DNA of 64,000 nt. Source: a virus (taxonomy: Duplodnaviria > Heunggongvirae > Uroviricota > Caudoviricetes). The notes below the pieces were generated by a model. It ran no database searches, had not been told where the DNA came from, and worked only from the letters and a program-made list of their open reading frames with translations. The position numbers and the translations under genes are program-made. Position 1 is the first letter of the stretch. Every line of letters begins with the position of its first letter. The stretch lies in the IMG/VR virus record IMGVR_UViG_2778260992_000001. One strand, 5' to 3'. This document shows, in pieces, positions 18,011 through 61,008 of the stretch.

Positions 18011-18032
18011 TAATAAGTAAGTGATTACTTAG
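18011..18032. promoter_or_regulatory. class-2 element TAAGTAAGT..TTACTTA
   Basis: TAATAAGTAAGTGATTACTTAG in divergent region between helicase and ParB-like genes. Confidence 0.5.
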
Positions 18033-18049
18033 TGGATTGTAGCAATAAA

Positions 18050-18730
18050 ATGGATGTAAAAATCACGATTTTGCAGGTTGATGTTGCCAACCTTCGCCCG
18101 AATACCTGGAACACCAATTCGGTTGGTGCGCAGAATTTTGAAAAACTGAAAGGTTCTATCGAAAAATTGGGCTTTTTTAAGCCAATTTTGGCTCGTGAAC
18201 TTGAAGATGGATTTTTTGAAATCCTCGGCGGTGAACATCGCTGGCGTGCTGCTATTGAGCAAGGAATTTCAACGGTTCCGGTGCTTTCTGTGGGCAAAAT
18301 TAGCGATGTCGTAGCTAAACAGATGTCACTGGTGGACAACGAGCGATACGGTGAAGACGACCAAATCGCATTGCAACGCTTCATTGAAGAAATTCAGTCA
18401 GAACTTGACTATCAACTGTTTGAAATCGCTCCGTATGACGACGAAATCTCGATGGTTTTAGCAAAAGAGGCGGCAATCGACCTTGAAGCACTGGAGGCGT
18501 TGTCTCGTGGTAGTGATGAGCCTGTCGATACCGACAAACGAGAGAAAACCGAACGTGTGGGTGCGGAACATCAGACCATGCGCTTCAAAGTAACTTTCGA
18601 TGCGTCAGATCGTGTTGCAGAAACCATAAAAAACATCATCAAAGAGCAGGCTATTAACACCGGTAATGAAATGGAGAACGCTGGTGAGGCTCTGGTGTGG
18701 CTGGTCGACTACTACAAGGAGCGTATGTAA
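18050..18730 (+). CDS. ParB/Srx-fold N-terminal domain protein 1
   Basis: GGEHRWRAA arginine-rich motif resembling ParB GERRxRAA box; start moved to ATG 18050. Confidence 0.6.
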   Translation: MDVKITILQVDVANLRPNTWNTNSVGAQNFEKLKGSIEKLGFFKPILARELEDGFFEILGGEHRWRAAIEQGISTVPVLSVGKISDVVAKQMSLVDNERYGEDDQIALQRFIEEIQSELDYQLFEIAPYDDEISMVLAKEAAIDLEALEALSRGSDEPVDTDKREKTERVGAEHQTMRFKVTFDASDRVAETIKNIIKEQAINTGNEMENAGEALVWLVDYYKERM

Positions 18731-19398
18731 TGACCAAAAAGTTTGAAATCGTATATCGCGACCCGGCAGATCTTATTCCCTATGAGATGAATGCCAAAAA
18801 GCATGATGAACAGCAGATCAGAGATCTGGCCGCAGCCATTAAAAAGCGCGGATTTGACCAGCCAATTACGGTCGATAAGAACGACGTAATTATTACTGGC
18901 CACGGCCGCCGTGAGGCTGCAATTTTTGCTGGACTTGAGCGCGTACCGGTTATTGTTCGCGATGATCTCAGTGATGACGAGGTTCGTGCGAAGCGCCTTG
19001 AAGATAACCGACTTGCCAGCATTGATTACGATGCAATTAAGCTACAGAAAGAGCTTGAGTCGCTTGTTCTGGACGATATCGAGGTTTTCGGCTTTGAAGA
19101 GCGTGAGTTGAATGTTCTCGTTGGCAGTATGACAGAAGAAATGGACACCGACTCGCTAGTTATCGATCTTGGCGAAGAAACTAAACGACAGAAGGATGAA
19201 CACACCGAGATCAGTCGTGAAGTTGCAGCGGAAGAAGTACGTGTTGTCGACGTATTGGGCTTTAAAACGCTCCCTGCTGGCTCTGCCATTGTTGTTGGTG
19301 ATTTGCTTGCCCATATGGAAGAAATGACGGGAGAAAGCGGGGTAGACGCATTTGTGGCATATGCGGAGAAGATCTCTTCCGGGGAGATGGCTGCATGA
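18730..19398 (+). CDS. ParB/Srx-fold N-terminal domain protein 2
   Basis: TGHGRREAA motif; start ATG overlaps previous stop (TAATG). Confidence 0.55.
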   Translation: MTKKFEIVYRDPADLIPYEMNAKKHDEQQIRDLAAAIKKRGFDQPITVDKNDVIITGHGRREAAIFAGLERVPVIVRDDLSDDEVRAKRLEDNRLASIDYDAIKLQKELESLVLDDIEVFGFEERELNVLVGSMTEEMDTDSLVIDLGEETKRQKDEHTEISREVAAEEVRVVDVLGFKTLPAGSAIVVGDLLAHMEEMTGESGVDAFVAYAEKISSGEMAA

Positions 19399-20060
19399 GC
19401 AAATACATCATCAACGTATCGTTTCAGACACGCGTAAATAAAACCACGCGCACGTTGGAAATCGCTGAGTCGTTCGGGCTTGGCCTGGACGAAAAAGAGT
19501 GGACGCTTTACGACAATCTGGAGCTGGAAGTGAAGCAGGGCGATGTGGTGTACATCACCGGCCAATCCGGTTCCGGCAAATCCGTTGTGCTGCGCGAGTT
19601 GCAACGACAGATGAAGGATGAAGGGCTGTCTGTAGCCTCCATCGATGATTTTACCTTCGATAATGAGGTTAACGTCATCGATCAGTTGGGCAAAACGACC
19701 AGTGATGCGCTTGGGTTGTTATCTATGGCTGGTCTGAACGATGCATATCTGTTTGTTCGCAAGCCTTCTGAAATGTCAGACGGCCAGAAATATCGTCTCA
19801 AGATTGCCAAACTGATTGAGTCAGGCGCTAAAGTATGGGCTGCTGACGAGTTCGGCGCTGTTCTCGACCGTGTAACCGCTCAGGTTGTGGCGTCTAACCT
19901 CCAGCGTGCCGCTCGAAAGGTTGGTGCGACGGTAATGGTGGCGACGACTCACGAAGACCTGAAGAACGCGCTGCGCCCTGATATGCAGATCACCAAGCAC
20001 TACAAAGAACGCGTGAAGGTGGAATATCACAATGGTAGTCATGATGAGGTCCATTCATGA
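19395..20060 (+). CDS. ABC-type ATPase (soluble, 221 aa)
   Basis: Walker A GQSGSGKS, signature-like SDGQKYR, Walker B VWAADEFG, H-loop ATTHED. Confidence 0.65.
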   Translation: MSKYIINVSFQTRVNKTTRTLEIAESFGLGLDEKEWTLYDNLELEVKQGDVVYITGQSGSGKSVVLRELQRQMKDEGLSVASIDDFTFDNEVNVIDQLGKTTSDALGLLSMAGLNDAYLFVRKPSEMSDGQKYRLKIAKLIESGAKVWAADEFGAVLDRVTAQVVASNLQRAARKVGATVMVATTHEDLKNALRPDMQITKHYKERVKVEYHNGSHDEVHS

Positions 20061-20947
20061 CGGACATCATCATTAAACGCTACCGCCCTGAAGAGTTTCC
20101 GCGTCATCTGGACTTTCTGGAGCGAATGACTGTTACAAAGGGAACTGTAGAGGACTGGCACGCTCTTAAGTCGCTTCACTACAAAACAGACGGCAAACCT
20201 TTCGCGCCAACTTACTATCGCTGCGAACTTGATGACCGTCTGGTGGGCGTCGTGGTTATGGCTTACCCGAAACTACTGTTGGCACCTCGCCACCGCATGT
20301 TTCCTAAGTTGAAACCAACCACTAATACCACCGTGGCTAACCAGTACTGGGGTCGGTACGTGAATAACAACTTTGCGGTGATCAGTCGCTCAGTTGTGGA
20401 TACTCAGTATCGTGGCGTAGGCGTCTCTTATAGAATGATTAACCTGGTTAGCAGGATGCATGACCGGCCAATCATTGAGATCCAGTCCTCGATGAGCAAA
20501 TACAATCCCTTCGCCATGAAAGCAGGGTTTAAGTTCATCCGCCCTGAGCGACCGAAGAGCTATGAAAGTGCACTGCGTGTGTTCCAGCGCCATTTCCGCT
20601 CCGACCCGGGTGATAACGAGGCGATCGTCAAAGAGTTGTTCGCTATGAGCGAGTCTCGTCGTCGCCGTGCGCTGCGCGATTTGGTGGCGGACTACCATAA
20701 GAACAGTTCCCTGGCAAAAGCTGGGCGGAATCGTGGCACGACGATTCAGGACATTGCCGACAGTCTGGTGGACGAGGCCAGCATTGTGAAGCTGCTCAAG
20801 GACATTCACAACCTGAGCTTTACGTCTCCGTTGTATGGTGTGTACCGAAACCCTGACTTTGGCCGTCGACTGCCTGACACGCTGCCACTGCTGGCATTCG
20901 ACAAACAACCTTTGGATAAACCGTTAGAAATTGCTTTACCGGCATAA
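20057..20947 (+). CDS. hypothetical protein, weak acyltransferase-like motif
   Basis: YRGVGVS segment reminiscent of GNAT motif A; weak. Confidence 0.4.
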   Translation: MTDIIIKRYRPEEFPRHLDFLERMTVTKGTVEDWHALKSLHYKTDGKPFAPTYYRCELDDRLVGVVVMAYPKLLLAPRHRMFPKLKPTTNTTVANQYWGRYVNNNFAVISRSVVDTQYRGVGVSYRMINLVSRMHDRPIIEIQSSMSKYNPFAMKAGFKFIRPERPKSYESALRVFQRHFRSDPGDNEAIVKELFAMSESRRRRALRDLVADYHKNSSLAKAGRNRGTTIQDIADSLVDEASIVKLLKDIHNLSFTSPLYGVYRNPDFGRRLPDTLPLLAFDKQPLDKPLEIALPA

Positions 20948-20956
20948 GGATTTGCC

Positions 20957-21223
20957 ATGACGTTAACCGATAAACAAAAGGACATCATCAAAACGCTCAA
21001 TCTCGGTTATGAGCGAGGTCATCTACTTGACCTGGACGAATTGCTTGAAGTTTTGCCGTACAAGACAACCAAGCAAAGTATCCAGTTCTCAATTCGCGCT
21101 CTGATAAAAAAGGGGCTGGTGGAGAAAGGGCATACGCGCCAACGCAGTGACAATCGCTATCACCGCCGGACTCTTGGGTTAACCACTTTAGGTCGAGCCA
21201 AAGCGAAGTTACTGGTGATGTAA
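20957..21223 (+). CDS. small putative DNA-binding protein
   Basis: 88 aa, basic C-terminus; helix-turn-helix-like segment. Confidence 0.4.
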   Translation: MTLTDKQKDIIKTLNLGYERGHLLDLDELLEVLPYKTTKQSIQFSIRALIKKGLVEKGHTRQRSDNRYHRRTLGLTTLGRAKAKLLVM

Positions 21224-21247
21224 TCGGTCTGGGAGCTTATTTAAAGA

Positions 21248-21302
21248 CCTGCATCTGTATATATAAATAATAAGTAACTTATTAAATATATACGGAAGCA
21301 GG
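21248..21302. repeat. 55-bp near-palindromic element, copy A
   Basis: CCTGCATCTGTATATATAAATAATAAGTAACTTATTAAATATATACGGAAGCAGG; reverse complement matches copy B at 52919 in 53/55 positions. Confidence 0.8.
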
Positions 21303-21337
21303 CTTCGTAAGACATGCCAGACCTAATTAAACACCCC

Positions 21338-21354
21338 AGAAAACAAGTTGGTTA
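21338..21354. promoter_or_regulatory. class-1 palindrome (variant)
   Basis: AGAAAACAAGTTGGTTA. Confidence 0.5.
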
Positions 21355-21363
21355 GCAGATGCA

Positions 21364-21380
21364 GTAAACAAGTTGTTTTA
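21364..21380. promoter_or_regulatory. class-1 palindrome
   Basis: GTAAACAAGTTGTTTTA, about 40 nt upstream of the terminase small subunit candidate. Confidence 0.55.
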
Positions 21381-21418
21381 GAGCGCATGGACGCGCTCTG
21401 TGTGTTTTAGAGGGATCT

Positions 21419-22051
21419 ATGACGGTCGAAAAAGACGAGGTAAAAACTCGCCTGACACCAGCGGAGTGGGCCGAAGCTGAAGCCAAATGGACGTCAGGCG
21501 AATATACACTCTCAAAGCTGGAGGAAGAGTACGGCATTCGTCGTGAAACACTCTCCAGACATTTCAAAAAGCGAGGATTAGAGAAAGGCGCGGACTCTGT
21601 TGGGAAGATGGTTCGTGAGTCTCTTAAATCTGACGCAGAGCTTCGCGCTAAAGCCCGTGCGGAAAAGATAGAAGAACGTCGTACACGTTATGACGGCTGG
21701 GCGTATGCGTTGGGGCAGATGGTGATGGTCGAAGTCACTACGGCCAAACGTGAGGGTAAGCCTTTAGGGGCGATTGAGGATTCTCTCAAGAGCTTACAGA
21801 GAGCCAGTAATACCCTTGCAAAATGCTTTGAAGTTTCGTCCAAAGCATTGGGCATGGATCATGCGGAAAATGACGAGGAAGAAATTCCGAACCTGGTATT
21901 TGGTGAGCTTACGCCTTCCCAGGTGGCGAAATTACGTCAGGAAGACGACGAGCCTGAAATCATCGATGACGAATTGCTTGAGACGTTGGAAGAAGAAGCT
22001 CTAAGCGAATTTGATGCGACAGATGATGGAAGTGAAGGGGAGGACGAATAA
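21419..22051 (+). CDS. terminase small subunit (putative)
   Basis: N-terminal HTH-like segment, acidic C-terminus, immediately upstream of and overlapping terminase large subunit. Confidence 0.6.
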   Translation: MTVEKDEVKTRLTPAEWAEAEAKWTSGEYTLSKLEEEYGIRRETLSRHFKKRGLEKGADSVGKMVRESLKSDAELRAKARAEKIEERRTRYDGWAYALGQMVMVEVTTAKREGKPLGAIEDSLKSLQRASNTLAKCFEVSSKALGMDHAENDEEEIPNLVFGELTPSQVAKLRQEDDEPEIIDDELLETLEEEALSEFDATDDGSEGEDE

Positions 22052-23307
22052 TGGCAATCCCGTCCTCGCTCAGTCTTGTGCAACTGCATTCTGGACAGAT
22101 GAAAGTCTTCCAGTCTCCGCATCGATTTAAAGTTGTTTGTGCTGGTCGACGCTGGGGAAAATCCCGGTTGTCGATCTCCACTATTATTCGTGCGGCGGCA
22201 AAGGAAAAAAAGCAAAGGGTCTGGTATGTCGCTCCTACATACCAGATGGCTCGCCAGATTTTGTGGGACGATCTACAGGAAGTTCTGCCTCGTAAGTGGG
22301 TTAGGAAAAAGAACGACACCACGATGACAATCGTGTTGAAGAACGGTTCGGAGATCGCCCTCAAAGGTGCTGATAAGCCTGACACTCTGCGCGGCGTAGC
22401 GTTGCATTTTGTAGTGCTTGATGAATTTCAGGATATGAAGGCTGACACCTGGTACAAGGTGTTACGACCTACTCTTTCATCGACACGCGGCGGTGCACTG
22501 ATCATTGGTACGCCAAAAGGCTTCTCGGAATTTCACAAACTGTGGACTATAGGCCAGAACGTAGAGCTGCAAAGAAAGGGACAGTGGAAGAGCTGGCAGT
22601 TTGTAACTGCCGATTCTCCGTTTGTACCTACGGCGGAAATTGAAGCTGCTAAGAACGATATGGACCCGAAATCGTTCGCTCAGGAGTACCTGGCGAGCTT
22701 TGAGAACATGTCCGGGCGCGTTTACTACCCGTTCGATCGTAACGTGCATGTAAAACCGCTTCAGTTCAACCCTCGGTTGCCTATATGGGTAGGGCAGGAC
22801 TTCAACATTGACCCGATGTCTTCAGTAATTTTGCAACCTCAGCCAAATGGTGAGCTATGGGCAATTGATGAATTGGTGCTCTTTTCCTCTAACACGGCAG
22901 AGGTTTGTGATGAGCTTGAGAGACGCTTCTGGCGCTGGAAATCACAGATAACGGTATTTCCAGATCCGGCAGGTGCTTATCGCCAACATGCTCGCGGGGA
23001 GTCTGACGTCGACATATTCAAAGAGAAGGGATTCTTACGTGTCGATTATTCGAAAAAGCACCCGCCAATTGCGGATCGTGTTAATGCTGTTAACCGAATG
23101 CTGATGACCGCATCTGGAGATATCCGGCTGTATATCGATCCGAAGTGCAAGCATTTGATTGATTCACTGGAAAAAGTCATCTACAAGCCTGGAACACGAG
23201 ATATGGATAAGACAGGTGGCATTGAGCATAGTGCAGACGCATTGGGCTATCCAGTACATCGTAGGTATCCAGTCAAAAACCGTGTTATTCTTGGTGGTTC
23301 TCGATAG
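22051..23307 (+). CDS. terminase large subunit
   Basis: Walker A-like CAGRRWGKS, Walker B VVLDEF, C-terminal nuclease-like region; followed by portal. Confidence 0.85.
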   Translation: MAIPSSLSLVQLHSGQMKVFQSPHRFKVVCAGRRWGKSRLSISTIIRAAAKEKKQRVWYVAPTYQMARQILWDDLQEVLPRKWVRKKNDTTMTIVLKNGSEIALKGADKPDTLRGVALHFVVLDEFQDMKADTWYKVLRPTLSSTRGGALIIGTPKGFSEFHKLWTIGQNVELQRKGQWKSWQFVTADSPFVPTAEIEAAKNDMDPKSFAQEYLASFENMSGRVYYPFDRNVHVKPLQFNPRLPIWVGQDFNIDPMSSVILQPQPNGELWAIDELVLFSSNTAEVCDELERRFWRWKSQITVFPDPAGAYRQHARGESDVDIFKEKGFLRVDYSKKHPPIADRVNAVNRMLMTASGDIRLYIDPKCKHLIDSLEKVIYKPGTRDMDKTGGIEHSADALGYPVHRRYPVKNRVILGGSR

Positions 23308-23325
23308 GTAAGTAATTATCTAAGG
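23303..23325. promoter_or_regulatory. class-2 element (imperfect)
   Basis: GATAGGTAAGTAATTATCTAAGG before portal gene. Confidence 0.4.
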
Positions 23326-23333
23326 TTATTCAA

Positions 23334-24908
23334 ATGGAATTGAACGACAAACAAATTAAGGATCTGGTGGCGCGACGCCACCCGGAATACGAAAAGAAAA
23401 AAGAACATTGGGACTTCCTCGCCAGCACTTACGCTGGCGGGCGTGGTTGGTTTACAGACAATATCTTTCGTTACTTTAAAGAGGGAGATCAGGAGTTTAA
23501 GGAGCGAGTTGAGCGTGCTTATCGCTTCAACCACACTCGTGAGGTGGTAAACCTCATCAACAAATATCTCTTTAAAGAAGACATTCATAGAAATATCGAA
23601 GAGGCACCAGAGCAGATCCGCAATTTCTGGAAACGTGCGACCCGCCAGAATGCCTCTATTGACTCATTTATGGCCGCTATTGATTTGCAGTCGTCTATTT
23701 ACGGTCGCATATGGGTTGTTGTCGATAGCACGATGAGTGGTGATGTTGAGTCAGTAGCTGACGAGAAAAAGAAAGATGCTCGCGCCTACGCCTACTGGAT
23801 TTCACCTCAGCAAATGCTGGATGTGGCATGGGACGACGACGGGAATATGTTGTGGGCGTTAATTGTGGAAGTCGCTCGTGATGACGCAGATCCTTTTACT
23901 TCTACAGGTCAGGAATACCAACGTTATCGTCTGTGGACACAAAACGAGTGGTATCTGTTCCGTGAGGAAGTGAAGAAGGGCGCTGGTGGAGCAGGTCGCC
24001 GTCAGGCAAAAGTTATTTTAGAGGATAGCGGTGCGCATAATCTCGGCGTAGTTCCTGTGTTTCCTGTTGATTGTATTGGAGAAAGTGAATCACCGTATTT
24101 CAGCCCATCGTTGATCGATGATATCGCTTATCTTGATCGTGCGGTTGCAAACTATCTGTCAAACCTTGATGCCATTATTCAGGATCAGACATTTAGCCAG
24201 TTGGCTATACCGGTACAGTCGCTTTTACCTGGTGATGAAAACCACACTAAAGTGCTTGAAATGGGCACAAAGCGAGTCTTCACCTACGATTCTGAAGGTG
24301 GAAACCAGCCGTTTTATCTGTCACCAGACCCGAAACAAGCTCAGATGATCATCACTACGATTAAGACGGTGATTAACGAAATCTACCATTCAGTTGGTGT
24401 AGCTGGTGAGCGAACGAAGCAGGACAACGCACAGGGAATCGATAACTCATCTGGTGCCGCAAAAATGTATGACTTCCAGCGTGTAAATAGCTTGCTTGTC
24501 ACAAAAGCAGAGCGTCTGGAAAGGGCTGAACGCCAAATCATGCTACTGGTTGCGAAATGGATGGGGGTAGATCTGGACGAAGACCACTCTTTAATTGCGT
24601 ATCCAGAAAGTTTCGATATTCGTGGCCTTACTGATGAATTTTCTGTTGCCGAGAAACTGTCGTTACTTCAGGCACCGGACTCTGTACGTCGTCACCAGAT
24701 GGAAATGCTGATTGAGAAGATTTTCCCGAACATCACTGAGGCGATGAAGAAGGAATTTGATAAAGATCTCTTGAATTTTCCGCCAAAAAATGATCTAAAT
24801 ACCCTTGAAAATAAGTCAGTACTTACTTATGATCAAGGCACAGCCCAAGAAAGCGGGCAAGATCAACCCCGAGGGAATGGGGACTCATCTACTCAAGAGA
24901 ACGAGTGA
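23334..24908 (+). CDS. portal protein
   Basis: 524 aa immediately after terminase large subunit. Confidence 0.7.
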   Translation: MELNDKQIKDLVARRHPEYEKKKEHWDFLASTYAGGRGWFTDNIFRYFKEGDQEFKERVERAYRFNHTREVVNLINKYLFKEDIHRNIEEAPEQIRNFWKRATRQNASIDSFMAAIDLQSSIYGRIWVVVDSTMSGDVESVADEKKKDARAYAYWISPQQMLDVAWDDDGNMLWALIVEVARDDADPFTSTGQEYQRYRLWTQNEWYLFREEVKKGAGGAGRRQAKVILEDSGAHNLGVVPVFPVDCIGESESPYFSPSLIDDIAYLDRAVANYLSNLDAIIQDQTFSQLAIPVQSLLPGDENHTKVLEMGTKRVFTYDSEGGNQPFYLSPDPKQAQMIITTIKTVINEIYHSVGVAGERTKQDNAQGIDNSSGAAKMYDFQRVNSLLVTKAERLERAERQIMLLVAKWMGVDLDEDHSLIAYPESFDIRGLTDEFSVAEKLSLLQAPDSVRRHQMEMLIEKIFPNITEAMKKEFDKDLLNFPPKNDLNTLENKSVLTYDQGTAQESGQDQPRGNGDSSTQENE

Positions 24909-24929
24909 TAAGTAACAAAGGGAATTTTT

Positions 24930-25817
24930 ATGAAACTGTGGCAAATGCTTTTGGCCCGTCGTGGTCTGATGGATGTTGCTGAAGCGCATGAGCGTGGAGG
25001 CGCTGGCGGTGTAGCTGCTGATAATGAGCAGAGTACACAAAATCCTGACAAACAGGGTGAACAAAAAGAGCAGCCGAAGGGTGATGACGAATACGCTGGC
25101 ATGACTCATGAAGAGTTACTGGCCGAACTTCGTAAAACCAAGAAAGCTGGTGCTGAACTGCTGAAAGAGAACATGAAGCGCAAAGAGAAAGAGCGCACAT
25201 TGGCCGATCAGCTTGCTCAGTACGGTGATATCGACCCGGCGCGTGCTCGCCAGCTTTTAGAAGCTGAACAGGCCGCAGAAAATGCACGTCGTGAGGCGGA
25301 GCAAGCTGAACTGGAGCGTCGTGGTGAGTTCGATGCTGTTAAAAAACAGATGATCGAAGCACACCAGGCAGAGCTGGCACAGCGTGACGAACGTTATGCA
25401 GCACTGGAAAGTGAAAACGCATCACTGAAATCTCAATTAGTCGAGATGACCGTGGGCGCTTCCTTCAGTAACTCTCTCTTCCTACGTGACAAAGTTCTGA
25501 TGACTCCGGCAAAAGCCCGCGTGATCTACGGTTCTCATTTTGAAGTGGGTGAAGACGGTAGCGTAGTGGGTTATGACAAACCGGCAGGTCATAAAGAACG
25601 AGCTGTTCTGGTTGACGGTGAAGGTAAGCCGTTGCCGTTTGAATCCGCGATTGAACGCATTGTGCGGGCAGATCCGGAAGCTGACGCATTGATGCGTAGC
25701 GAAGCCAAGCAGGGTGTAGGCTCACATTCCAAATCGACCTACACAATATCCCAACCGAAGAACAAGTCGACTATGGATAAGTTGGCCTCCGGTCTGGGGA
25801 AAATTGGACTTAAGTAA
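24930..25817 (+). CDS. head scaffolding protein (putative)
   Basis: Charged coiled-coil-like E/K/A/R-rich sequence between portal and capsid genes. Confidence 0.55.
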   Translation: MKLWQMLLARRGLMDVAEAHERGGAGGVAADNEQSTQNPDKQGEQKEQPKGDDEYAGMTHEELLAELRKTKKAGAELLKENMKRKEKERTLADQLAQYGDIDPARARQLLEAEQAAENARREAEQAELERRGEFDAVKKQMIEAHQAELAQRDERYAALESENASLKSQLVEMTVGASFSNSLFLRDKVLMTPAKARVIYGSHFEVGEDGSVVGYDKPAGHKERAVLVDGEGKPLPFESAIERIVRADPEADALMRSEAKQGVGSHSKSTYTISQPKNKSTMDKLASGLGKIGLK

Positions 25818-53832: not shown

Positions 53833-53840
53833 CTAATACT

Positions 53841-53875: not shown

Positions 53876-55216
53876 ATGACCGAACTTTGCCATACAGGAC
53901 GCGGGCTGTCCGAAGAGTTTGATGAAGATTTCCAGAACAGACTGACGGCATATTTTTGTCGTGATCACGAGTTTCTTACTCGTGCGGGAGATCTGGTTGT
54001 GCCTAGCCAATTTGCCAATGCGGCCAATGCCATATTGGTTAATATGGTTTCGGGCTATTACCGTATGTACAAGAGCGCGCCCTCTTCATCTGCAATTCTG
54101 GATATGCTTAAGCGTGCGAAACGCGATAAGACTATCCGTGAGGAACTATTCGCCGATGTTGTTGCTGCGTTTAAGCGCATCCTTGCAGAAAAATTGTCCG
54201 ATACCTCGTACATGGTTGACCAGGTATCAACCTTCGCAAAAAGCGTAGCGTTTGATGATGCTCTGATTAAGGCTGCTGAACTGAAAGAGAAGGGCGACTT
54301 TCAGGGGGCGATGGCAATCATGGCCAAGGTTCAGCAGATTGGATCGAATGAAGCGACCGGAATCTATGACTACTACACCTCCGCAAGTGAGCGATTGAAA
54401 GCGCGTGAATATGAGGCTTCAGAGGAGTATGTACCAAACAGTATTACAACTGGACTCCCTCTTCTCGATAGGTTGCTGTACCAAAAAGGCTGGGCAAAGC
54501 GCGAAATGGTGCTCTTCATGGGGTTCGCTAAATCCGGTAAATCGACCGCAATGGGTGAGTTTTCCATAAACGCAACGCTTGCTGGCTACAATGTTCTGTA
54601 TCTCTCGCTGGAGGTTCACACCAACATTTTGTCCGATCGTTTTGATGCAAGATTGTCGGAGACGGAAATGTCCAAGCTGGTGGAACGGCGCGATGAAGTT
54701 CATCGTAAGTTGGCAGAGTTGGGAGCCACGAAGGGGATTGGTAGTTTGTGGGTTGTTGAGCGTCCGTCAGGAAGTATGTCACCGGCAGATCTGGACCGTA
54801 TGCTTAACAGCATGAAAGCCAATGGCATGGTGCCTGACATGGTTGTTGTCGACTACGCAGATTTGATGCGTGCCAGTTATGACCTTCGTGATGATCGCGC
54901 CAATATTCGTAGTATCTACACCGATTTACGTGCTCTTTATGACAAACATAACGTTGCTGGGATCACGGCATCGCAGACAAACCGTGAAGGTGGCGCGTCA
55001 GAAGTTGCCACAATGATGCACGCTGCCGACAACATCGAAAAAGTACGTATTGCTGACCTGGTAATAACGATCAACAAAACCGAAGAAGAAGAAGCGAAAG
55101 GAGAGGCTCGTCTCTACTTTGCTGGTTCGCGTAACCAGCAGGGAGGGATCAGCATTCGCGTTAAACAAAACCTCGAACAAATGCGCTTCATTGAGCGAAT
55201 CTTAGACGTTACCTAA
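53876..55216 (+). CDS. DnaB-like replicative helicase
   Basis: C-terminal RecA-like domain with Walker A GFAKSGKST and DnaB-type downstream motifs; 446 aa. Confidence 0.75.
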   Translation: MTELCHTGRGLSEEFDEDFQNRLTAYFCRDHEFLTRAGDLVVPSQFANAANAILVNMVSGYYRMYKSAPSSSAILDMLKRAKRDKTIREELFADVVAAFKRILAEKLSDTSYMVDQVSTFAKSVAFDDALIKAAELKEKGDFQGAMAIMAKVQQIGSNEATGIYDYYTSASERLKAREYEASEEYVPNSITTGLPLLDRLLYQKGWAKREMVLFMGFAKSGKSTAMGEFSINATLAGYNVLYLSLEVHTNILSDRFDARLSETEMSKLVERRDEVHRKLAELGATKGIGSLWVVERPSGSMSPADLDRMLNSMKANGMVPDMVVVDYADLMRASYDLRDDRANIRSIYTDLRALYDKHNVAGITASQTNREGGASEVATMMHAADNIEKVRIADLVITINKTEEEEAKGEARLYFAGSRNQQGGISIRVKQNLEQMRFIERILDVT

Positions 55217-55220
55217 AAAA

Positions 55221-55247
55221 TAAGCGTGGAGAACACCTCCACGCTTG
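55221..55247 (+). terminator. hairpin AAGCGTGGAG-AACA-CCTCCACGCTT
   Basis: 10-bp stem right after helicase stop; weak U-tract. Confidence 0.5.
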
Positions 55248-55297
55248 ATTCATTGGTGAAACAACTTTTCTTTTGCCAAACCACAAAAGAAAAACAC

Positions 55298-56479
55298 ATG
55301 AGCCTTTATGTTATATCAACATTTAGGTTGGTCACAATATTGCCTGTTAAAAGTGGAATTATCGTGAGCGAGCTGAAAGAGCTAATTACCGAATTAGATT
55401 TTGAACAATGGTTGGATACTGAAGGTATCGTTTATCGACGTGGAGGCGTGAGTGCTCGCGGTCGTGAAGTGAATATCAAGGAGTGTCCGGTATGCGGCAG
55501 CTCCAACTGGAAGGTATATTTCAATCTGACCAGTGGCGTCGGTAAATGCTTCGCTGGTGATCATCCCGAAGAGATTCAGTTCAATAAGCTGGTCTTCCTC
55601 AAGCACTACAGCGGCAAATCACGACGACAGTTCGAGGAATATGTGCAGAACGCTCTTCTTTCCCAGGGGTGGGCACCAAAGAAAGAAGAGATAGTGCTTG
55701 CAAGCACAGTCGAGTTAGAGGGACCACTTGCACTCCCTCGTCATTACGAACTTCCTATAGATGGCCGTCTTCCAGACTATCTGGTTGAACGAAACATATC
55801 GCCTGAAATGGCAAAGTATTTTGACCTACGATACTGCGTCGAAGGCAAGCACGCTTATGTTGATCCGTATACAGATCAGGTTAAAGGACAGATATTCGAT
55901 ATGCGAATACTGATACCGGTTTACGATCTGGATGGGGTAATGAAGACATTTCAGGGGCGAGACATTACCGGTACAGCTGAACGTCGCTACCTCTTTCCTA
56001 TGCAGCTTCCAGCTTCAGGTAAGTTTCTCTACAACGGCCATAATGCGCTCGGCAAACAGACTGTAGTTGTCTGTGAGGGGGCGTTCGATGTTATGGGGGT
56101 TAAACGAGCTATTTTTGATGAAGAAACATTACGTGATTACGTGGAACCGATAGGAACGTTCGGGATGCATCTATCTGGCAACACCACTCAGGATGCAGAA
56201 GATCAGTTGGGCGCGTTCCTGACGCTCAAGGCGCGTGGATTACGTAATGTGATCATGATGTGGGATAGTGAAAAGCAAGCTATACGCAACACGATGGCCG
56301 CAGCCAGGCGATTGACCAGTATTGGTCTTAATGTCAAAGTTGCGTGTTTGGGCGAGGAAGGACTCGACCCCGGCGATGCGACACCGGGGCAGATTATCAA
56401 AGCCTACTATTGCGCAAAACCTTACTCACGACAGCTTGAACTTTTAAGCAAGGTAAAAGGTATAGCAGCATTAGTTTGA
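55298..56479 (+). CDS. DnaG-type DNA primase (zinc ribbon plus TOPRIM)
   Basis: CPVCGSS..(17)..KCFAGDH zinc-binding motif; TOPRIM-like VVVCEGAFDVMG and MMWDSE; start uncertain (ATG 55298 or GTG 55364). Confidence 0.7.
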   Translation: MSLYVISTFRLVTILPVKSGIIVSELKELITELDFEQWLDTEGIVYRRGGVSARGREVNIKECPVCGSSNWKVYFNLTSGVGKCFAGDHPEEIQFNKLVFLKHYSGKSRRQFEEYVQNALLSQGWAPKKEEIVLASTVELEGPLALPRHYELPIDGRLPDYLVERNISPEMAKYFDLRYCVEGKHAYVDPYTDQVKGQIFDMRILIPVYDLDGVMKTFQGRDITGTAERRYLFPMQLPASGKFLYNGHNALGKQTVVVCEGAFDVMGVKRAIFDEETLRDYVEPIGTFGMHLSGNTTQDAEDQLGAFLTLKARGLRNVIMMWDSEKQAIRNTMAAARRLTSIGLNVKVACLGEEGLDPGDATPGQIIKAYYCAKPYSRQLELLSKVKGIAALV

Positions 56480-57508
56480 ACCAGTATTAGTCACGTAAAC
56501 ATTGACCGAAAATGATTTAACTTCTGTGTTGAAGTTGTCAGTCATTACCGCGAGGTAGGCATTCTTGGTATCTCTGAATTGCTTCAGGATGATTTGAACG
56601 TTATCGGTGCAAACAAACGAGGTAGCCAGATTGCCTCCTTTCTCTGAAAAATCCTTTAGGAAAGTGCAGTCAATTTTGCCATCATTAGCGGTGAAGGTGG
56701 CATCATCACCCTGCCAGGTAAATGTTGCGTTAACGCCTTTATCAATGGATTTAGCAATAAGTCGTTGAGTGGAGGATTTTGCTTTAGATCTTGCTGCTGA
56801 TGGTTGGTATTTACCGCTTTCTTTTAGTTCTGCAATGTAATCACAGCCATTTTTATCTTCTTTATCGCAAGCTGCCTGATAAAGCTCAGCTGCTTTTTTA
56901 TAATCTTTTTTAACCCCTTCACCATACTCATACATAATGCCAAGATTCGCCAATGCAGATGCACTGCCTAGTTCGATTCCTTTTTTATAATACTCTATTG
57001 CCTTTTTGTAGCTTTTTGGCACGCCTGCGCCAACATAATATAACTGTCCTAAATATGACGCAGATTCAGGGTCGCCAGCCTCTACTGCAAGTTTGTGATA
57101 TTTCAGGGAAAGTTTTTGGTCTTTCTTACCCGCAAGTCCTTTATGATAAATAACACCCAGATTGTGATAAGAGTTGCCTCCAGCTGCATCACCAGCTTTC
57201 TTAAAGAGTTCCTCTGCCTTTTTGAAATTTTTATCAACCCCATACCCAAGGGCATACATTATACCTAGAGCATTAAACGCTTCTTTGTTCCCCTTAGAAG
57301 TCGCCAGTTCAAGCCATTTTCTGGCTTCATCGTAGTTTTTTTCGACACCATGAATACCTTTCATATAGTCGATACCTAAAGCACTCTGTGACTCAACGTC
57401 GCCTGCTTTTGCCGCATCGATCAGCTTTTGTATTTCATAGGCATGTGCACTCCCCGAAACAAGTAATAGCGACAACATAAAGAAAGATATTGGTTTGAAA
57501 TGTTTCAT
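56471..57508 (-). CDS. secreted Sel1-like repeat (SLR) protein
   Basis: Signal peptide MKHFKPISFFMLSLLLVSGSAHA; repeated A-x-x-LG-x-xY..G-x-GV..K/D..A-x-x-WY-like units; extra C-terminal domain. Confidence 0.7.
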   Translation of the reverse strand: MKHFKPISFFMLSLLLVSGSAHAYEIQKLIDAAKAGDVESQSALGIDYMKGIHGVEKNYDEARKWLELATSKGNKEAFNALGIMYALGYGVDKNFKKAEELFKKAGDAAGGNSYHNLGVIYHKGLAGKKDQKLSLKYHKLAVEAGDPESASYLGQLYYVGAGVPKSYKKAIEYYKKGIELGSASALANLGIMYEYGEGVKKDYKKAAELYQAACDKEDKNGCDYIAELKESGKYQPSAARSKAKSSTQRLIAKSIDKGVNATFTWQGDDATFTANDGKIDCTFLKDFSEKGGNLATSFVCTDNVQIILKQFRDTKNAYLAVMTDNFNTEVKSFSVNVYVTNTGSN

Positions 57509-57627
57509 TTTTGGATTTTCACAAGATGGTTAGGTGGTTGTGGCTACTCGGTGTAAGGCTTTGTAATCACCGATTGGTAAGGTTACTTCAATTTAGCTTA
57601 ACTGTCAGCATACCCAATCGCCGAAAA

Positions 57628-57649
57628 GATAAGTAGATGATTACTTATT
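57628..57649. promoter_or_regulatory. class-2 palindrome
   Basis: GATAAGTAGATGATTACTTATT upstream of ORF 57690. Confidence 0.5.
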
Positions 57650-57689
57650 AGTGTGTAAGAATACTGCCATCTGTTAGCTAGGAGTTGGT

Positions 57690-58472
57690 ATGAAAGACGA
57701 AATTCAGAAATTAGCCTGCGACATCATTGATAAAACTGGTTTAGAAATCAGCGAGAGCAATCGGCTAGACATCATTGAAAAAGCCGTCAATACGGCAATG
57801 GCTCATATCGCCACTCGTTTAGTCGAGATCCCGCTACCGGGGCTACCTTATCTGAAGGTTAAGTTGCGCGTATGGGGCGAACCTGCACATGCACGACGTT
57901 CTGCATTAGTTGTTTTTGTACGCAAAGAAAACTTACGAACTCTAAAAGTGCAGGTTGGGGCGTGGTTTGATGGCAGAGTCATCTATACAGATACCATTAT
58001 CTGTCCTCCAGGTGACGAACATATTGAAGCCGTCATTCGAGAATCAATTCGAGCTATGCGCAGTTTAGCTTTGCTGGAAGACAAGCAAAACTTTGAAGAT
58101 TACTTGCTGTCGGTAAAAGCTGAACCAACATTGTCTCTGAAAGCCGATTTCGTCACCCCGACAAATCTGTTGGAGGTTTTGATTAATAAAGGGGCTAATG
58201 ATGCTGTAAACCTAATCAGGGAGAGCGAATATTCGACTCTTTGCGACATGTGCAAAAGCCAGTTGGATCTTGTGCATATCATTGTTGATGCGGGGAAGGC
58301 GTGTGATGGCGTAATGGCGGAATTTGCTGGGAAGATGGTCAGGATTGCTAACGAATTACCGATGATAGAGCAAGAGGCCAAATCATACGCCACCAATCAT
58401 GTCACAGAGCTTCTTGCCCCCTATCGCTTAGAAAGCGATCAGCGCAAGATGATTAGCTGGGGAAGTTGGTAA
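57690..58472 (+). CDS. hypothetical protein
   Basis: ATG after AGGAG. Confidence 0.5.
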   Translation: MKDEIQKLACDIIDKTGLEISESNRLDIIEKAVNTAMAHIATRLVEIPLPGLPYLKVKLRVWGEPAHARRSALVVFVRKENLRTLKVQVGAWFDGRVIYTDTIICPPGDEHIEAVIRESIRAMRSLALLEDKQNFEDYLLSVKAEPTLSLKADFVTPTNLLEVLINKGANDAVNLIRESEYSTLCDMCKSQLDLVHIIVDAGKACDGVMAEFAGKMVRIANELPMIEQEAKSYATNHVTELLAPYRLESDQRKMISWGSW

Positions 58473-58539
58473 GCTCTCTGTGTGTCGTTTTTTACGCAAA
58501 TAATGATAGGTAAGCACAAGATTATTTCTGGCGGTAATT

Positions 58540-59010
58540 GTGAAAGCTGATTTGTCAAAAATCCCTTCTATTTCAGGAAATAACGGTTATTCACTTCGTT
58601 GTGAGGAAGTAAAGATAAACGGTGAGTCGGCATATTGCAGCTATTCCGTTTGCCAGCACACCATTCTTGCCTTCAAAGAAAACCGTCTTCCTCGAACTTC
58701 TTTCCAGTCGTGCGCAACCGCTATTAAAGCAGGCAAATGTAAGGCGTTAAAAATGATGGTTGAAGAGATTCGTAAAGGAGAATCTCTGTATTTCGCAGAT
58801 ATGACCGCACTCATTAAGGAGGTTGAAGAACGGAATAAACAAGCCAGATCTATAAAACGAAAACGTGACAGTGTAACGATTAATAGCATGGTTAAGAAGA
58901 GCGCCACATCACAAACAGCGATCACTGACGTGTATGCGGCGTTGCTTGAAGAAACAACAAAAGAAACACATGAGCAAATCGATCAACATATGGAGGCAAA
59001 ACAACAATGA
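58540..59010 (+). CDS. hypothetical Cys-rich protein
   Basis: GTG start; N-terminal C-x-x-x-C/C-Q-H cysteines; overlaps ligase start. Confidence 0.4.
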   Translation: MKADLSKIPSISGNNGYSLRCEEVKINGESAYCSYSVCQHTILAFKENRLPRTSFQSCATAIKAGKCKALKMMVEEIRKGESLYFADMTALIKEVEERNKQARSIKRKRDSVTINSMVKKSATSQTAITDVYAALLEETTKETHEQIDQHMEAKQQ

Positions 59011-60329
59011 AAAAGTTGATCGCACTTAAGCATAAGCTGGACGAAATGAAAGCTATGGGAACCAATGCAAAAAAAGAGGCATTGGCCAACATGGATGACT
59101 TTGAACAAAGCATGGTTTCATTGATGCTCAACCCTTTCATCCGTTTTGGGGTAAAGAAATACAAAGTGGCAGAGCCGCTTAGTGAGTCCGTCCCAAGTGA
59201 CGAAAAAGCCATTGATGTACTGAATAAGCTGGCCTCTCGCGAGCTGACGGGGAACGCAGCAATAGCTGCTGTTGAGTCTATCGTGGCGTCAATGTGCGCC
59301 GATGGGCAGGACGTGTTCCGTCGTTTCCTCTTAAAAGACCCGAAAGCGGGTGTTGGGATTAGCCTATGCAACAAGGTTTTTGAAAATCCCATTCCGAAAT
59401 TCGAGGTGCAGCTGGCGTCACCGTATAAAGAAAAAGGCGACAAATACCCCTTCAAGCCAAACCCTAAAGCAAAATGGCCGATGATTGGCAGCCTTAAGCT
59501 CGATGGTTTGCGAGTAATTTGCGAGGTTATTGTTGACGAAGAAGAGGTTAACTTCCTTTCTCGTACTGGTAATCCAATCACGTCTCTCGATCACCTAAAG
59601 CCAGCCATGCTCGAATTAGGCAAACTTTCAGGCCACAAACACATCTTCTTCGATGGTGAAGGCACAGCCGGTTCATTTAACCAGTCCGTATCTGCATTGC
59701 GCAAAAAGAACGTGCAGGCAATTGGCGCTATTTATCATGTTTTCGACTTCTTCCTACCGGAATGGCGAGCACAGGCTAAATCCAAAGAGTATGCAAAGAC
59801 ATGTATGAAGCTGAAAGAGCGCCTGGCTATGCTCGTGGCGTTGTTCAAAAACGATCGCAGTGAAGGCTACGCACAAGACATTCACCTGCATCCGTTCTAC
59901 ATCATCCATAGCCACGAAGACTTCATCGAACGCTTCATGAAACGCCTGGACGATAACGAAGAAGGGGAGATGGGCAAAGATCCGAACTCTGTTTACGAGT
60001 TTAAACGTACCCGCAGCTGGTGGAAGTTAAAAGACGAAGATTCAGAAGATGGTGAAATTATCGATTTTGAGCCGGGCGACCCGGACTCTGGTTTTGCCAA
60101 CACGCTTGGAAAAATTGTTATTCGTCTTGAAAACGGCGTCATCGTTCGTGCGAGCGGCATTAAGCATAAATATCTGGACGAGATCTGGAACAACAAAGAG
60201 AAGTACCGTGGTCGCATTGTCGAGGTTCATTGTCACGAGAAAACACCTGATGGCAGCTTACGCCACCCACGACTGAAATGGCCGCGTTGCTTACGCGATA
60301 CCGAAGATCGAATCGGAGATAAAGAATGA
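59007..60329 (+). CDS. ATP-dependent DNA ligase
   Basis: Adenylation motif I KLDGLR (Lys in KxDG) and downstream nucleotidyltransferase-like motifs; 440 aa. Confidence 0.8.
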   Translation: MKKLIALKHKLDEMKAMGTNAKKEALANMDDFEQSMVSLMLNPFIRFGVKKYKVAEPLSESVPSDEKAIDVLNKLASRELTGNAAIAAVESIVASMCADGQDVFRRFLLKDPKAGVGISLCNKVFENPIPKFEVQLASPYKEKGDKYPFKPNPKAKWPMIGSLKLDGLRVICEVIVDEEEVNFLSRTGNPITSLDHLKPAMLELGKLSGHKHIFFDGEGTAGSFNQSVSALRKKNVQAIGAIYHVFDFFLPEWRAQAKSKEYAKTCMKLKERLAMLVALFKNDRSEGYAQDIHLHPFYIIHSHEDFIERFMKRLDDNEEGEMGKDPNSVYEFKRTRSWWKLKDEDSEDGEIIDFEPGDPDSGFANTLGKIVIRLENGVIVRASGIKHKYLDEIWNNKEKYRGRIVEVHCHEKTPDGSLRHPRLKWPRCLRDTEDRIGDKE

Positions 60330-60541
60330 TCGTATTAAGTAAACGGGAGAAAGAAACGCTTCATGAAATTAGTAAGTGGCCGGAGTTCCCTGAGTACTGG
60401 AAGCCTAAAACGCGAGCTAAGTTAGAGCGTTTAGGGTTGGTTGCAAACGTTTCTGAAACGTGGTGCTCGGCCAACTACCAGTTAACTGATAAAGGGAAAT
60501 TATTGCTACAGCAATTAGTAGAATCAGGAGCCTTTAAATGA
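60326..60541 (+). CDS. hypothetical small protein
   Basis: Coupled start. Confidence 0.4.
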   Translation: MIVLSKREKETLHEISKWPEFPEYWKPKTRAKLERLGLVANVSETWCSANYQLTDKGKLLLQQLVESGAFK

Positions 60542-60690
60542 TTCCATACATCTCATTGGCTTTTATGGCTGGCTTCCTTATCGGCTTCGGCATCTGTCGT
60601 GATTTGATTAAGCAGGAACTTAAAACCAAAACACTGTGCATCGGGAAGCGTGTGTATCGGGTAGTTCATGAAACAAAGGTGAGAACATGA
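60538..60690 (+). CDS. hypothetical small membrane protein (50 aa)
   Basis: Manually read ORF with hydrophobic N-terminus ISLAFMAGFLIGFGI; coupled to neighbours. Confidence 0.3.
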   Translation: MIPYISLAFMAGFLIGFGICRDLIKQELKTKTLCIGKRVYRVVHETKVRT

Positions 60691-60977
60691 GCAATTTAAC
60701 TTCTTGGGACTGGTGGTTGGTACACTATTTCTTAGCGGCCGGAGTCGCATTCGCCTTTTACGTAGGTCAGTTAGTCGTAAAACTGTTGCTGATTAAATTT
60801 GCTAGTCATAAACGTATCGATGATGGTCTGTGGCGTCTTGGCACCCTGGTGGAAACTCGCTACGGGCAACTTAAGGAGAACGAAACCATTACTATCCAAG
60901 CGAAACGATTCACTGCCACCATCACAAGAACACCTAGTCGTAGAGTGGCCTTGATCAAAAAAGTCACAACCGAATAA
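60687..60977 (+). CDS. hypothetical membrane protein
   Basis: N-terminal TM WWLVHYFLAAGVAFAFYVG. Confidence 0.45.
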   Translation: MSNLTSWDWWLVHYFLAAGVAFAFYVGQLVVKLLLIKFASHKRIDDGLWRLGTLVETRYGQLKENETITIQAKRFTATITRTPSRRVALIKKVTTE

Positions 60978-60986
60978 AAACATATC

Positions 60987-61008
60987 GATAAGTATTTACT
61001 TACTTATC
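60987..61008. promoter_or_regulatory. class-2 palindrome
   Basis: GATAAGTATTTACTTACTTATC (8-bp arms). Confidence 0.5.

Follow-up and report, generated by a model that had tools for sequence, protein, structure and literature searches.

What reads the short repeated elements, built around TARGTAAGTA and TACTTA, that stand ahead of so many operons in the tailed-phage record IMGVR_UViG_2778260992_000001, and to what end? The stretch of 64,000 nucleotides analysed here (the window) had been described in a first-pass annotation made from the sequence alone, which treated the elements as a second motif family, distinct from a class 1, and as consistent with middle or late promoters recognised by a modified RNA polymerase or a phage activator. 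We find that these class-2 elements are copies of a single 22-bp dyad with constant spacing, which is very probably a cis-regulatory site bound by protein, placed at the promoters of the lytic genes and recognised by a factor that the phage itself encodes. The narrower proposition, that the dyad is the repressor operator of the lytic regulon and is served by a phage-encoded symmetric regulator, is our preferred reading, at about even odds.

The aligned copies consist of a left half, RATARGTAAGT, followed directly by a right half, ACTTACYTATY. The exact string TARGTAAGTA occurs eight times in the window where 0.11 would be expected, and the enrichment of the full 22-mer is equally clear: 13 sites have at least 17 of 22 matches and 10 have at least 18, as against 0.32 and 0.017 expected from shuffles. 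We accepted 14 copies in total (Table 1), five of which (starting at 10486, 24810, 26726, 58505 and 63877) were absent from the first-pass annotation. The elements that it quoted all lie within 0–2 nt of the positions it gave. GGTAAGTATATACTTACC is at 30305 and TAGGTAGGTAAGTATATACCTAC at 47936, as described; GTAAGTACTTAC is real, starting at 43730 rather than 43732; and the other listed copies were located at 18012, 23303, 36806, 53059, 57628 and 60987. Twelve of the 14 accepted copies are wholly intergenic, which has a binomial probability of ~7e-11 given that 90% of the window is coding (gene calls made in this analysis); of the other two, one lies over the terL stop codon and one in the final 100 nt of the portal gene. 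The copies are preferentially intergenic and associated with promoters ahead of genes, as had been supposed. Ribosome-binding-site context as the cause of this placement was rejected, as the gap to the start codon varies from 0 to 98 nt, the dyad has no GGAG core, and a variant palindrome occupies the same junctions in Rhizobium phage RHEph10.

Which genes the motif heads is best judged against related genomes. Positions 30000–50000 of the window match Escherichia phage Cyrano (pLF82, OV696614.1) at 95.9% identity with 95% query coverage, and Salmonella phage SSU5 at ~80% identity; because of these sequence matches, we take the window to be a phage-plasmid of the SSU5/pHCM2 type. Its gene order tracks that of Cyrano, with an accessory and early region first, then a UvsW-like helicase (minus strand), a ParB-like operon, terS, terL, portal, the head, tail, side fibre and lysis genes, and lastly parA, helicase/primase, ligase and a tRNA cluster. 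Transfer of the Cyrano annotation confirmed that the portal, major tail protein, L, side tail fibre and holin genes lie downstream of copies. A middle/late or structural-only regulon did not hold up. The whole Cyrano and SSU5 genomes carry ~22–25 copies each, and these head the portal, scaffold/capsid, decoration, major tail, L, side fibre and holin units and additionally replication, recombination and nucleotide-metabolism units (SSB, sbcCD, RNR, thyX, dam, RNase H, helicase and ligase). Because of this second group the motif is not late-specific, and judging from the genes it heads, the class-2 regulon would be essentially the entire lytic gene set. Its separation from class 1 was upheld: the class-1 palindrome (GAAAACAAnTTGTTTTC) is a different motif, and since the genes it heads (parA and several early genes) show moderate expression in Cyrano lysogens (PMC9928086), the two classes represent different regulons.

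Copies are found at orthologous junctions in Cyrano, SSU5 and Klebsiella phage pJN2-26 while their flanks diverge, and several of the pJN2-26 copies are perfect (terL–portal, capsid–decoration and M–L junctions). A scan of IMG/VR added a 59%-GC metagenomic contig, L047, a relative of RHEph10, in which the AT-rich motif recurs unchanged in type before the ParB-like gene, at the terL–portal junction and before the capsid gene. In RHEph10 itself (61% GC) the window-type motif is not present, and the same junctions carry a related dyad (left half AGTCAATCAAT, right half ATTGATTTACC) with at least 18 copies in the first 50 kb. These variant sites lie upstream of ParB, terS, portal, the major tail gene, helicase, cobT and cobS, and at the M–L junction. 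Within each genome all of the copies change together, as the RHEph10 variant illustrates, and because of this co-variation the reader should be phage-encoded and a host factor can be excluded. By this comparison, the site must co-evolve with a phage protein, in a system far older than the enterobacterial phage-plasmids.

To describe the symmetry of the element, we assembled a motif logo from 49 sites in three genomes (the window, Cyrano and SSU5). The logo is symmetric, with both halves and their flanks about equally conserved, and weak flanking preferences (A/W on the left, A-T on the right) widen the dyad to ~26 bp. Its centre is the most variable part, and the best-kept bases show a 4-bp periodicity. 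There is no covariation between mirrored positions: the pairings match the expectation for independence at all 11 pairs, and A-C mismatches are seen 10 times at positions 5/18. Since the halves vary independently, an RNA hairpin was rejected and the pattern points to a double-stranded DNA site bound by a symmetric protein.

In the same 49-site set there is no hexamer at one fixed distance across all copies. Instead, −10-like hexamers peak at the edges of the dyad, with 26 of the 49 sites having one at positions −3 to 3 and 23 having TAnnnT at positions 19–24. The most conserved bases of the motif, T19 and A20, coincide with the −12/−11 bases of the commonest −10 (TAYCAT). Where a −35 hexamer is present, it lies 17 bp upstream of the 19–24 hexamer, so that the dyad forms the spacer; such sites occur in the window, Cyrano, SSU5, L047 and RHEph10 (Table 1). 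For RHEph10, TTG is found at the −35 offset in 5 of ~24 sites, where ~0.3 would be expected (an estimate from base composition). Other registers are predicted elsewhere: over the −35 (10486), upstream of an extended −10 (the 57628 type) and downstream of TAT(C/G)AT (53059). Canonical sigma70 matches as a whole fall below shuffles, with 13 against 20.8 ± 4.8 in 17500–37400 and 11 against 35.3 ± 5.4 in 43500–63400.

Published RNA-seq data for Cyrano (PMC9928086, supplementary file 2) were read against the class-2 site map. In LB lysogens the genes downstream of class-2 sites have a mean of 3.1 log2, where the floor is 2.32, and the silence extends to genes behind near-consensus (10/12) promoters (CYRAN_56 at 2.32 and CYRAN_4 at 3.4; PMC9928086). 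Inside macrophages at 6 h, expression rises exactly at the Cyrano sites 3526 (+1.2), 9017 (+2.5), 34729 (+2.4), 57445 (+3.6) and 59398 (+3.65 log2) (PMC9928086). The largest structural-gene rise, +2.5 log2, is at the major tail junction, and there is also a rise at the junction orthologous to 24805–24833, the top promoter-like match of its region in the window (10/12 positions).

We favour repression because the placement of the dyad within the polymerase footprint is variable, because it overlaps −12/−11 and because near-consensus promoters are silent in lysogens. A variable position suits a repressor operator, since activators need a fixed position and repressors do not. Under the mechanism that we propose, a regulator acting as a dimer or dimer of dimers would bind the single copy at the head of almost every lytic transcription unit. 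Each copy would fall inside the stretch that RNA polymerase covers at a core promoter of the sigma70 type, mostly as its spacer. The bound protein would block these promoters and keep the lytic regulon silent in the plasmid-prophage; on removal of the protein, the whole regulon would switch on together. Hairpins would block read-through, leaving each unit reliant on its own controlled promoter. What the data show is the motif, with its symmetry, enrichment, placement, conservation and co-evolution across phages, and the silence of its downstream genes in lysogens; whether it represses or activates, where transcription starts, what the hairpins do and which protein is involved are inferred.

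Several points weigh against repression. Most copies are without a −35, and TAnnnT stands at positions 19–24 in only about half; taken simply as sigma70 promoters, such copies would be weak, although they lie ahead of the most abundant virion proteins, and weak hexamers before abundant virion genes are typical of activator-dependent late promoters. The register with a −35 at −5 to +1 and a −10 at 19–24 recurs across distant phages and could reflect a fixed geometry between an activator and RNA polymerase. The −10 hexamers at 53059 and 23303 are predictions. In the RNA-seq data, several strong palindromes have no expression step, other sites have none or show a drop after the hairpin, and the trend for poorer palindromes to be leakier is non-significant (Spearman −0.29, p = 0.22; Mann-Whitney p = 0.058). 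Finally, our candidate regulator, an 88-aa winged-helix protein described below, has little mRNA in lysogens, and across the three lineages compared there is no clear correspondence between its recognition-helix residues and the type of motif.

Much of this would be explained by an activator like Lpa of phage P1, a reading that we consider possible but the less probable. The palindrome would then replace the −35; with an activator bound to it, host sigma70 RNA polymerase would be drawn to the TAYCAT −10 at the right-hand end of the palindrome, and lysogens would be silent because the activator is absent. The Lpa repeat is centred near −22, not far from the centre computed for the present motif, −19.5. 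P1 has 11 late promoters, in each of which an inverted repeat of 9 bp is conserved and is said to be the Lpa site (PMC10695390), and offers a parallel for copies that head structural and lysis operons, mostly lack a −35 and have a −10-like hexamer in one register at 23 of 49 sites. In lysogens the candidate factors (the 88-aa protein and two ParB-like proteins) hardly rise, or do not rise, above the expression floor, as would suit an absent activator, the stress-induced rises are equally compatible with activation, and the family reaches RHEph10, which carries rIIA/rIIB genes. However, copies predicted at ~+6 to +27 (53059) or abutting a Shine-Dalgarno sequence (23303) are unfit as upstream activator sites, the register is another one at 10486 and in copies of the 57628 type, and the protein would touch −12/−11 as duplex. 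The near-consensus TTGAAA-17-TAT(C/G)AT promoters are at the lysogen floor, where basal activity would be expected without an activator, and the winged-helix mRNA is higher in condition B6 (targets off) than in MB1 (targets on). Replication genes in the regulon mean that it is no late class, and no Lpa-like family match was obtained when ~50 window proteins were scanned with Pfam and PHROGs. A phage activator, as suggested in the first-pass annotation, is possible, though the geometry and the RNA-seq data from lysogens are better accounted for by repression.

The remaining readings are much less probable. One would make the dyads ParB-type loading or centromere-like sites for the two ParB-like proteins, used in DNA organisation, packaging or long-range silencing, with the link to promoters secondary. 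It is typical of parS/OB sites to be long perfect palindromes dispersed along a replicon, the ParB-like operon is headed by a copy in every lineage examined and also encodes two ABC-type ATPases, and the two 55-bp palindromes described below contain the half-site of the dyad. ParB-like protein 1 aligns to Spo0J/ParB/Noc over the N-domain, GxxR-type motif included, and it ends in a strand-helix-helix pattern (HQTMRFKVTF..NAGEALVWL) that includes residues unchanged between the phages of E. coli and those of Rhizobium and that looks, by sequence pattern only, like a ribbon-helix-helix. We nevertheless judge this reading improbable. Both proteins match the ParB N-domain only, with no helix-turn-helix domain recognisable by Pfam or PDB sequence search; expression of their genes (CYRAN_119 and CYRAN_120) does not rise above the floor in lysogens, so that they have no role in plasmid maintenance; and the predicted DNA-facing residues are identical in L047 and RHEph10 despite the different motifs. 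The actual partition pair is ParA with a ParG-like protein, whose promoter has a class-1 and not a class-2 site (another palindrome in RHEph10), and the fixed −35/−10 register in several lineages argues for a transcriptional role. That the palindrome acts as an mRNA hairpin (serving in processing, stabilising the 5′ end or being bound by a translational repressor, for instance the FljA-like protein of this phage) is very improbable. In its favour, copies are often placed after a stop codon and before the following Shine-Dalgarno sequence, in some cases right against the latter, the Salmonella fliC leader has GATAAGG beside its Shine-Dalgarno sequence and FljA is reported to bind the fliC mRNA leader (PMC2652032). 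Against it stand the absence of compensatory changes and the frequent mismatches, A-C included, at mirrored pairs, and the variable centre and 4-bp periodicity, which resemble those of protein-bound dyads. Further, copies in divergent promoter regions adjoin the gene start, no Rfam family matches the palindrome, and RHEph10 has the palindrome system though no FljA-like homologue was detected at the corresponding place. We give the least credence to a promoter for a phage-encoded RNA polymerase or sigma factor, which would account for a conserved element of ~20 bp directly upstream of ribosome-binding sites, as in T7-type promoters, and for which RHEph10 offers a sigma-70-family protein, gp045. 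Such promoters are directional, whereas the element is symmetric together with its flanks. It stands at variable positions with respect to the sigma70 hexamers, and T19/A20 fall at −12/−11, which is how an operator behaves; moreover, host-type −35/−10 hexamers flank several copies. The modified polymerase originally suggested, or a phage one, is thus disfavoured. In agreement with the first-pass annotation, no sigma factor or RNA polymerase was found among the ~50 scanned window proteins or in the Cyrano and SSU5 annotations, and a tblastn search with gp045 against the window, Cyrano and SSU5 gave no homologue at E <= 1, so that this candidate reader was set aside.

Returning to repression, the arrangement of the dyads includes a second conserved feature. 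GC hairpins start 0–8 nt 3′ of many copies, in the window after 26726 (a terminator), 30301, 36806 and 43725. At the major tail and M–L junctions the hairpin stems differ among the window, SSU5, the Klebsiella phage and RHEph10, and the position is kept. The M–L hairpin (L129 ~28650; SSU5 ~15620) has a constant loop, ACAGGATGT, with a U-rich tail after it and a completely swapped stem (GGCGCT/AGCGCC versus CAACGT/ACGTTG, the latter in Klebsiella), and it looks, from this pattern, like a conserved attenuator or terminator inside the tail operon. A −10 at positions 19–24 places the start in or at the 5′ arm of the hairpin, so that the hairpins would stop read-through and spare local transcripts; from their positions they probably stop read-through from the preceding unit. 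At its most extended, this idea would make palindrome and hairpin an insulated promoter-in-terminator cassette (~25 of them) starting in the hairpin 5′ arm, under one ancient module of a ParB-like CTPase pair, ABC-type ATPases and the MarR-like protein that would load at the palindromes and act as a KorB-like clamp and regulator, with the site co-evolving from enterobacterial phage-plasmids to Rhizobium phages; read-through would terminate and locally started transcripts would escape. We put this composite forward only as a speculative possibility.

Which protein might be the reader? The leading candidate for the trans-acting factor, as yet unproven, is the 88-aa protein encoded just upstream of terS, for which AlphaFold predicts a winged-helix topology (pLDDT 82) and Foldseek gives matches to the MarR-family cores of MepR, ZitR and MarR (TM 0.7–0.76). 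It has no Pfam or PHROG function, and no further regulators were recognised by these databases among the ~50 window proteins scanned. Homologues are present in the Klebsiella phage, L047 and RHEph10, while a search of IMG/VR for distant homologues returned only relatives 78–100% identical. In Cyrano lysogens its mRNA is 1–3 log2 units above that of the upstream neighbour. The module headed by copy 18012, consisting of two ParB-N-domain proteins, two ABC-type ATPases and the 88-aa protein before terS, is kept in all lineages.

Other DNA-binding proteins were considered as class-2 readers and their candidacy was weakened. The 92-aa ribbon-helix-helix protein encoded directly after the UvsW-like helicase varies in its predicted DNA-facing residues (Y/H/S and A/Q/K) between phages whose motifs are identical. 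In Cyrano lysogens the orthologous gene is one of the most strongly expressed, at 12 times background, and the protein could be an immunity-type repressor with a variable operator. The partner of ParA, annotated as a RelE/ParE toxin in Cyrano, looks more like a centromere-binding protein of the ParG type, a ribbon-helix-helix with a basic tail. Its identity among the elements of E. coli, Salmonella and Klebsiella is 92–100%, much higher than the average over the genome, and its own promoter has class 1; in RHEph10, where a ParA and ribbon-helix-helix pair is also present, the promoter has a third palindrome, CGCTAAAnnTTTAGCG. The FljA-like protein has no homologue at the corresponding place in RHEph10. 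It is a full-length homologue of FljA, the phase-1 flagellin repressor (Pfam Flag1_repress, 2.5e-84), with a weak Hfq-like C-terminal match, and its gene is in the same place in Cyrano, SSU5 and the Klebsiella phage-plasmid, the host of which is presumably non-flagellate. The gene is expressed in Cyrano lysogens. The fliC target of FljA shares CAAGTTGT with the class-1 core, the Salmonella fliC leader reading AACATCAAGTTGTAATTGATAAGGAAAAGATCATG, and instead of being a flagellin moron the protein may serve as a core regulator of the phage, possibly as the reader of class 1. The class-1 palindrome gives 14 matches at up to 3 mismatches (0.63 expected), and its sites lie ~10 nt downstream of an extended −10 of the type TGnGATAAT, just past the likely start, where they head early small genes, terS, parA and the helicase gene.

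Table 1. Coordinates of the class-2 copies, related sites, candidate genes and other features. Positions refer to the window unless another genome is named; halves are those of the 22-bp dyad.
Feature	Position	Strand	Left half	Right half	Context
Class-2 copy	10486–10507		GTATTGTAAGT	ACATACTTACG	Over the −35 and spacer of promoter-like TTGTAA (10489–10494)-17-TAGAAT (10512–10517)
Class-2 copy	18012–18033		AATAAGTAAGT	GATTACTTAGT	82-bp divergent region between UvsW-like helicase (−) and ParB-like operon (+, ATG 18050)
Class-2 copy	23303–23324		GATAGGTAAGT	AATTATCTAAG	Junction of terL stop and portal start, 9 nt ahead of portal ATG
Class-2 copy	24810–24831, within 24805–24833	+	AATAAGTCAGT	ACTTACTTATG	17-bp spacer of near-consensus sigma70 promoter TTGAAA...TATGAT; 3′ end of portal gene, upstream of scaffold and major capsid genes
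Class-2 copy	26726–26747		AGTAGATAAGC	AGTTATCTATG	Degenerate; after major capsid gene; terminator-like hairpin next (stem 26753–26769, then T-run)
Class-2 copy	30301–30322		AATTGGTAAGT	ATATACTTACC	Ahead of major tail gene (ATG 30372); TACCAT at motif positions 19–24; short hairpin 30326–30341 on its 3′ side
Class-2 copy	36806–36827		GATAAGTAAGT	ACTAATTTACT	Between tail genes M and L; hairpin 36836–36858 (GGCGCTGACAGGATGTTAGCGCC) downstream
Class-2 copy	43725–43746		AATAGGTAAGT	ACTTACTTAAT	Best in window, 21/22; between J and side tail fibre gene; GC hairpin 43747–43767 immediately 3′
Class-2 copy	47938–47959		GGTAGGTAAGT	ATATACCTACA	Ahead of holin/lysis genes; TACAAT at motif positions 19–24
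Class-2 copy	53059–53080, within 53042–53080	+	GATAAGTAAGT	AACTACCTACC	Abuts Shine-Dalgarno sequence of first gene of helicase unit (ATG 53092); TATCAT/TATGAT hexamer 53042–47, 11 nt upstream
Class-2 copy	57628–57649, within 57628–57662	+	GATAAGTAGAT	GATTACTTATT	Followed by extended −10-like TGTAAGAAT (57654–57662)
Class-2 copy	58505–58526		GATAGGTAAGC	ACAAGATTATT	Half-degenerate; ahead of DNA ligase-containing unit; Cyrano copy at 35606
Class-2 copy	60987–61008		GATAAGTATTT	ACTTACTTATC	Near-perfect; after small-gene cluster, ~750 nt upstream of tRNA cluster
Class-2 copy	63877–63898		GATAAGTATGC	ACATACCTATC	Divergent centre; 110 nt upstream of minus-strand 420-aa gene; mirrored TATCAT facing left
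Spacer-type site	Cyrano 57445; SSU5 55694				TTGAAA-17-TATCAT
Spacer-type site	L047, terL–portal junction				TTGCCA-17-TATGAT
Spacer-type sites, three	RHEph10				TTGATG, TTGGCA or TTGACG-17-TACCAT
Two tandem ParB/Srx N-domain proteins	18050–19398	+			Two ABC-type ATPases next; module always ahead of terS
88-aa protein, candidate reader	20957–21223	+			Just upstream of terS, end of ParB-like operon headed by copy 18012
FljA-like protein	15107–15625	−
92-aa ribbon-helix-helix protein	16127–16405	−
ParG-like protein	51628–51987	+			After parA
Class-1 17-mers	6757, 6808, 9602, 10086, 10989, 11739, 12224, 21339, 21364, 50910, 53842
55-bp palindromes	~21249–21303; 52918–52972				Upstream of terS; divergent region before helicase unit
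Methionyl-tRNA synthetase gene	4575–6674	+			Complete
Side tail fibre gene repeats	45841–47378				Spacing 120 nt
Minus-strand insertions	52040–52807; 56471–57508	−			In plus-strand lytic region
tRNA cluster	61754–62311				Asn, Tyr, Thr, Ser

Individual copies are conserved to different extents. The promoter arrangement at 10486 recurs in SSU5 (93164, with TAATAT) and in Klebsiella pJN2-26 (TAGTAT). Copy 18012, whose left edge is overlapped by TATAAT-like hexamers on both strands, has an orthologue at the head of the ParB-like gene in Cyrano, SSU5, the Klebsiella phage and L047, and RHEph10 has the variant motif there. The orthologue of 23303 is a perfect palindrome in Klebsiella, with flanks of TTGCCA-17-TATGAT in L047 and, around the variant, TTGACG-17-TACCAT in RHEph10. 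The degenerate copy at 26726 is better kept in SSU5 (5470) and perfect in Klebsiella (19025). The hexamer upstream of copy 53059 is kept in Cyrano, SSU5 and Klebsiella and, as a −10, would place the copy at ~+6 to +27; TGTAAGAAT, as a −10, would place copy 57628 at ~−41 to −20. This last arrangement is also seen at SSU5 38177 and 84177 and at Cyrano 84619, and the gene downstream of the Cyrano orthologue of 57628 is leaky in lysogens.

The two 55-bp near-perfect palindromes (CCTGCTTCTGTATATAT..AATAAGTwACTTATT..ATATATACAGAAGCAGG) have relatives in Cyrano, SSU5 and the Klebsiella phage. It had been stated that their centres carry the class-2 core; the outer 7-bp arms of the dyad are indeed there, abutted, but the inner AAGT.ACTT is missing. 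A centromere, a packaging site and an origin-like site are possibilities for their function. Elsewhere in the window, the methionyl-tRNA synthetase gene is annotated likewise (MetRS) in Cyrano, the tRNA cluster comprises four tRNAs, and the side tail fibre gene contains at least five diverged in-frame repeat units (GGTAATGC..ACGAAGTTGCAGAC..TTTGATGG). Both minus-strand insertions differ from Cyrano at their places; one encodes a GIY-YIG (LEM-3-like) nuclease-domain protein and the other a Sel1/TPR-repeat protein.

We found no description of the motif, or of lytic-gene control in SSU5-type phages, in the searchable literature, and the nearest comparisons are with other systems of dispersed sites. 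The many dispersed operators of the P1 repressor C1 are asymmetric 17-mers, unlike the present 22-bp perfect dyad, with which they share no sequence similarity. P1 is nevertheless like this phage in being an enterobacterial phage-plasmid with dozens of transcription units in which a repeated short motif at their heads defines a regulon and two motif classes (C1, Lpa) coexist. The Lpa promoters have an inverted repeat just upstream of the −10 and no −35 (PMC10695390), as is predicted for many of the present copies. Unlike the Lpa boxes, the present motif also heads replication and nucleotide-metabolism genes, and its distance to the −10 is variable; no C1 or Lpa homologue was recognised among the ~50 window proteins scanned, with no direct comparison made to the Lpa sequence. 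By analogy with P1, the motif would be a dispersed operator or promoter box defining a phage regulon.

The 21-bp operator of P22 Arc lies between the −35 and −10 of Pant, and in this and MarR-family operators a dyad of ~21–22 bp fills the spacer and touches the −10 for a small symmetric protein, as may be the case here with a candidate of MarR-type fold. Arc serves one promoter pair rather than ~25 copies per genome and is a ribbon-helix-helix protein, whereas our candidate is a winged helix. RK2, with 12 KorB OB palindromes (and KorA), and N15, with dispersed SopB-binding inverted repeats, likewise have perfect palindromes scattered by promoters and a replicon-encoded reader, and here a site heads ParB-family genes. 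Yet these ParB-like proteins are silent in lysogens and without a recognisable helix-turn-helix, and it is the class-1 motif that is found at the partition operon. In T4 middle promoters the place of the −35 is taken by an element specific to the phage, upstream of a −10 of the host type, and the present phage has UvsW, UvsY and gp32-like SSB genes, as T4 does. The MotA box is an asymmetric 9-mer at −30, read by a monomer with AsiA, while the present motif is a symmetric 22-mer of variable placement, and no MotA/AsiA homologue was seen.

SSU5/pHCM2-like phage-plasmids are common in E. coli, Salmonella, Klebsiella and Shigella, and carriage of resistance genes is possible. For this clinically common family, the motif maps the lytic regulon and provides a bait sequence for finding the switch protein, giving a first testable handle on the lytic switch. 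The co-evolved variant in the Rhizobium phage offers a natural specificity-swap series for the pairing of site and protein.

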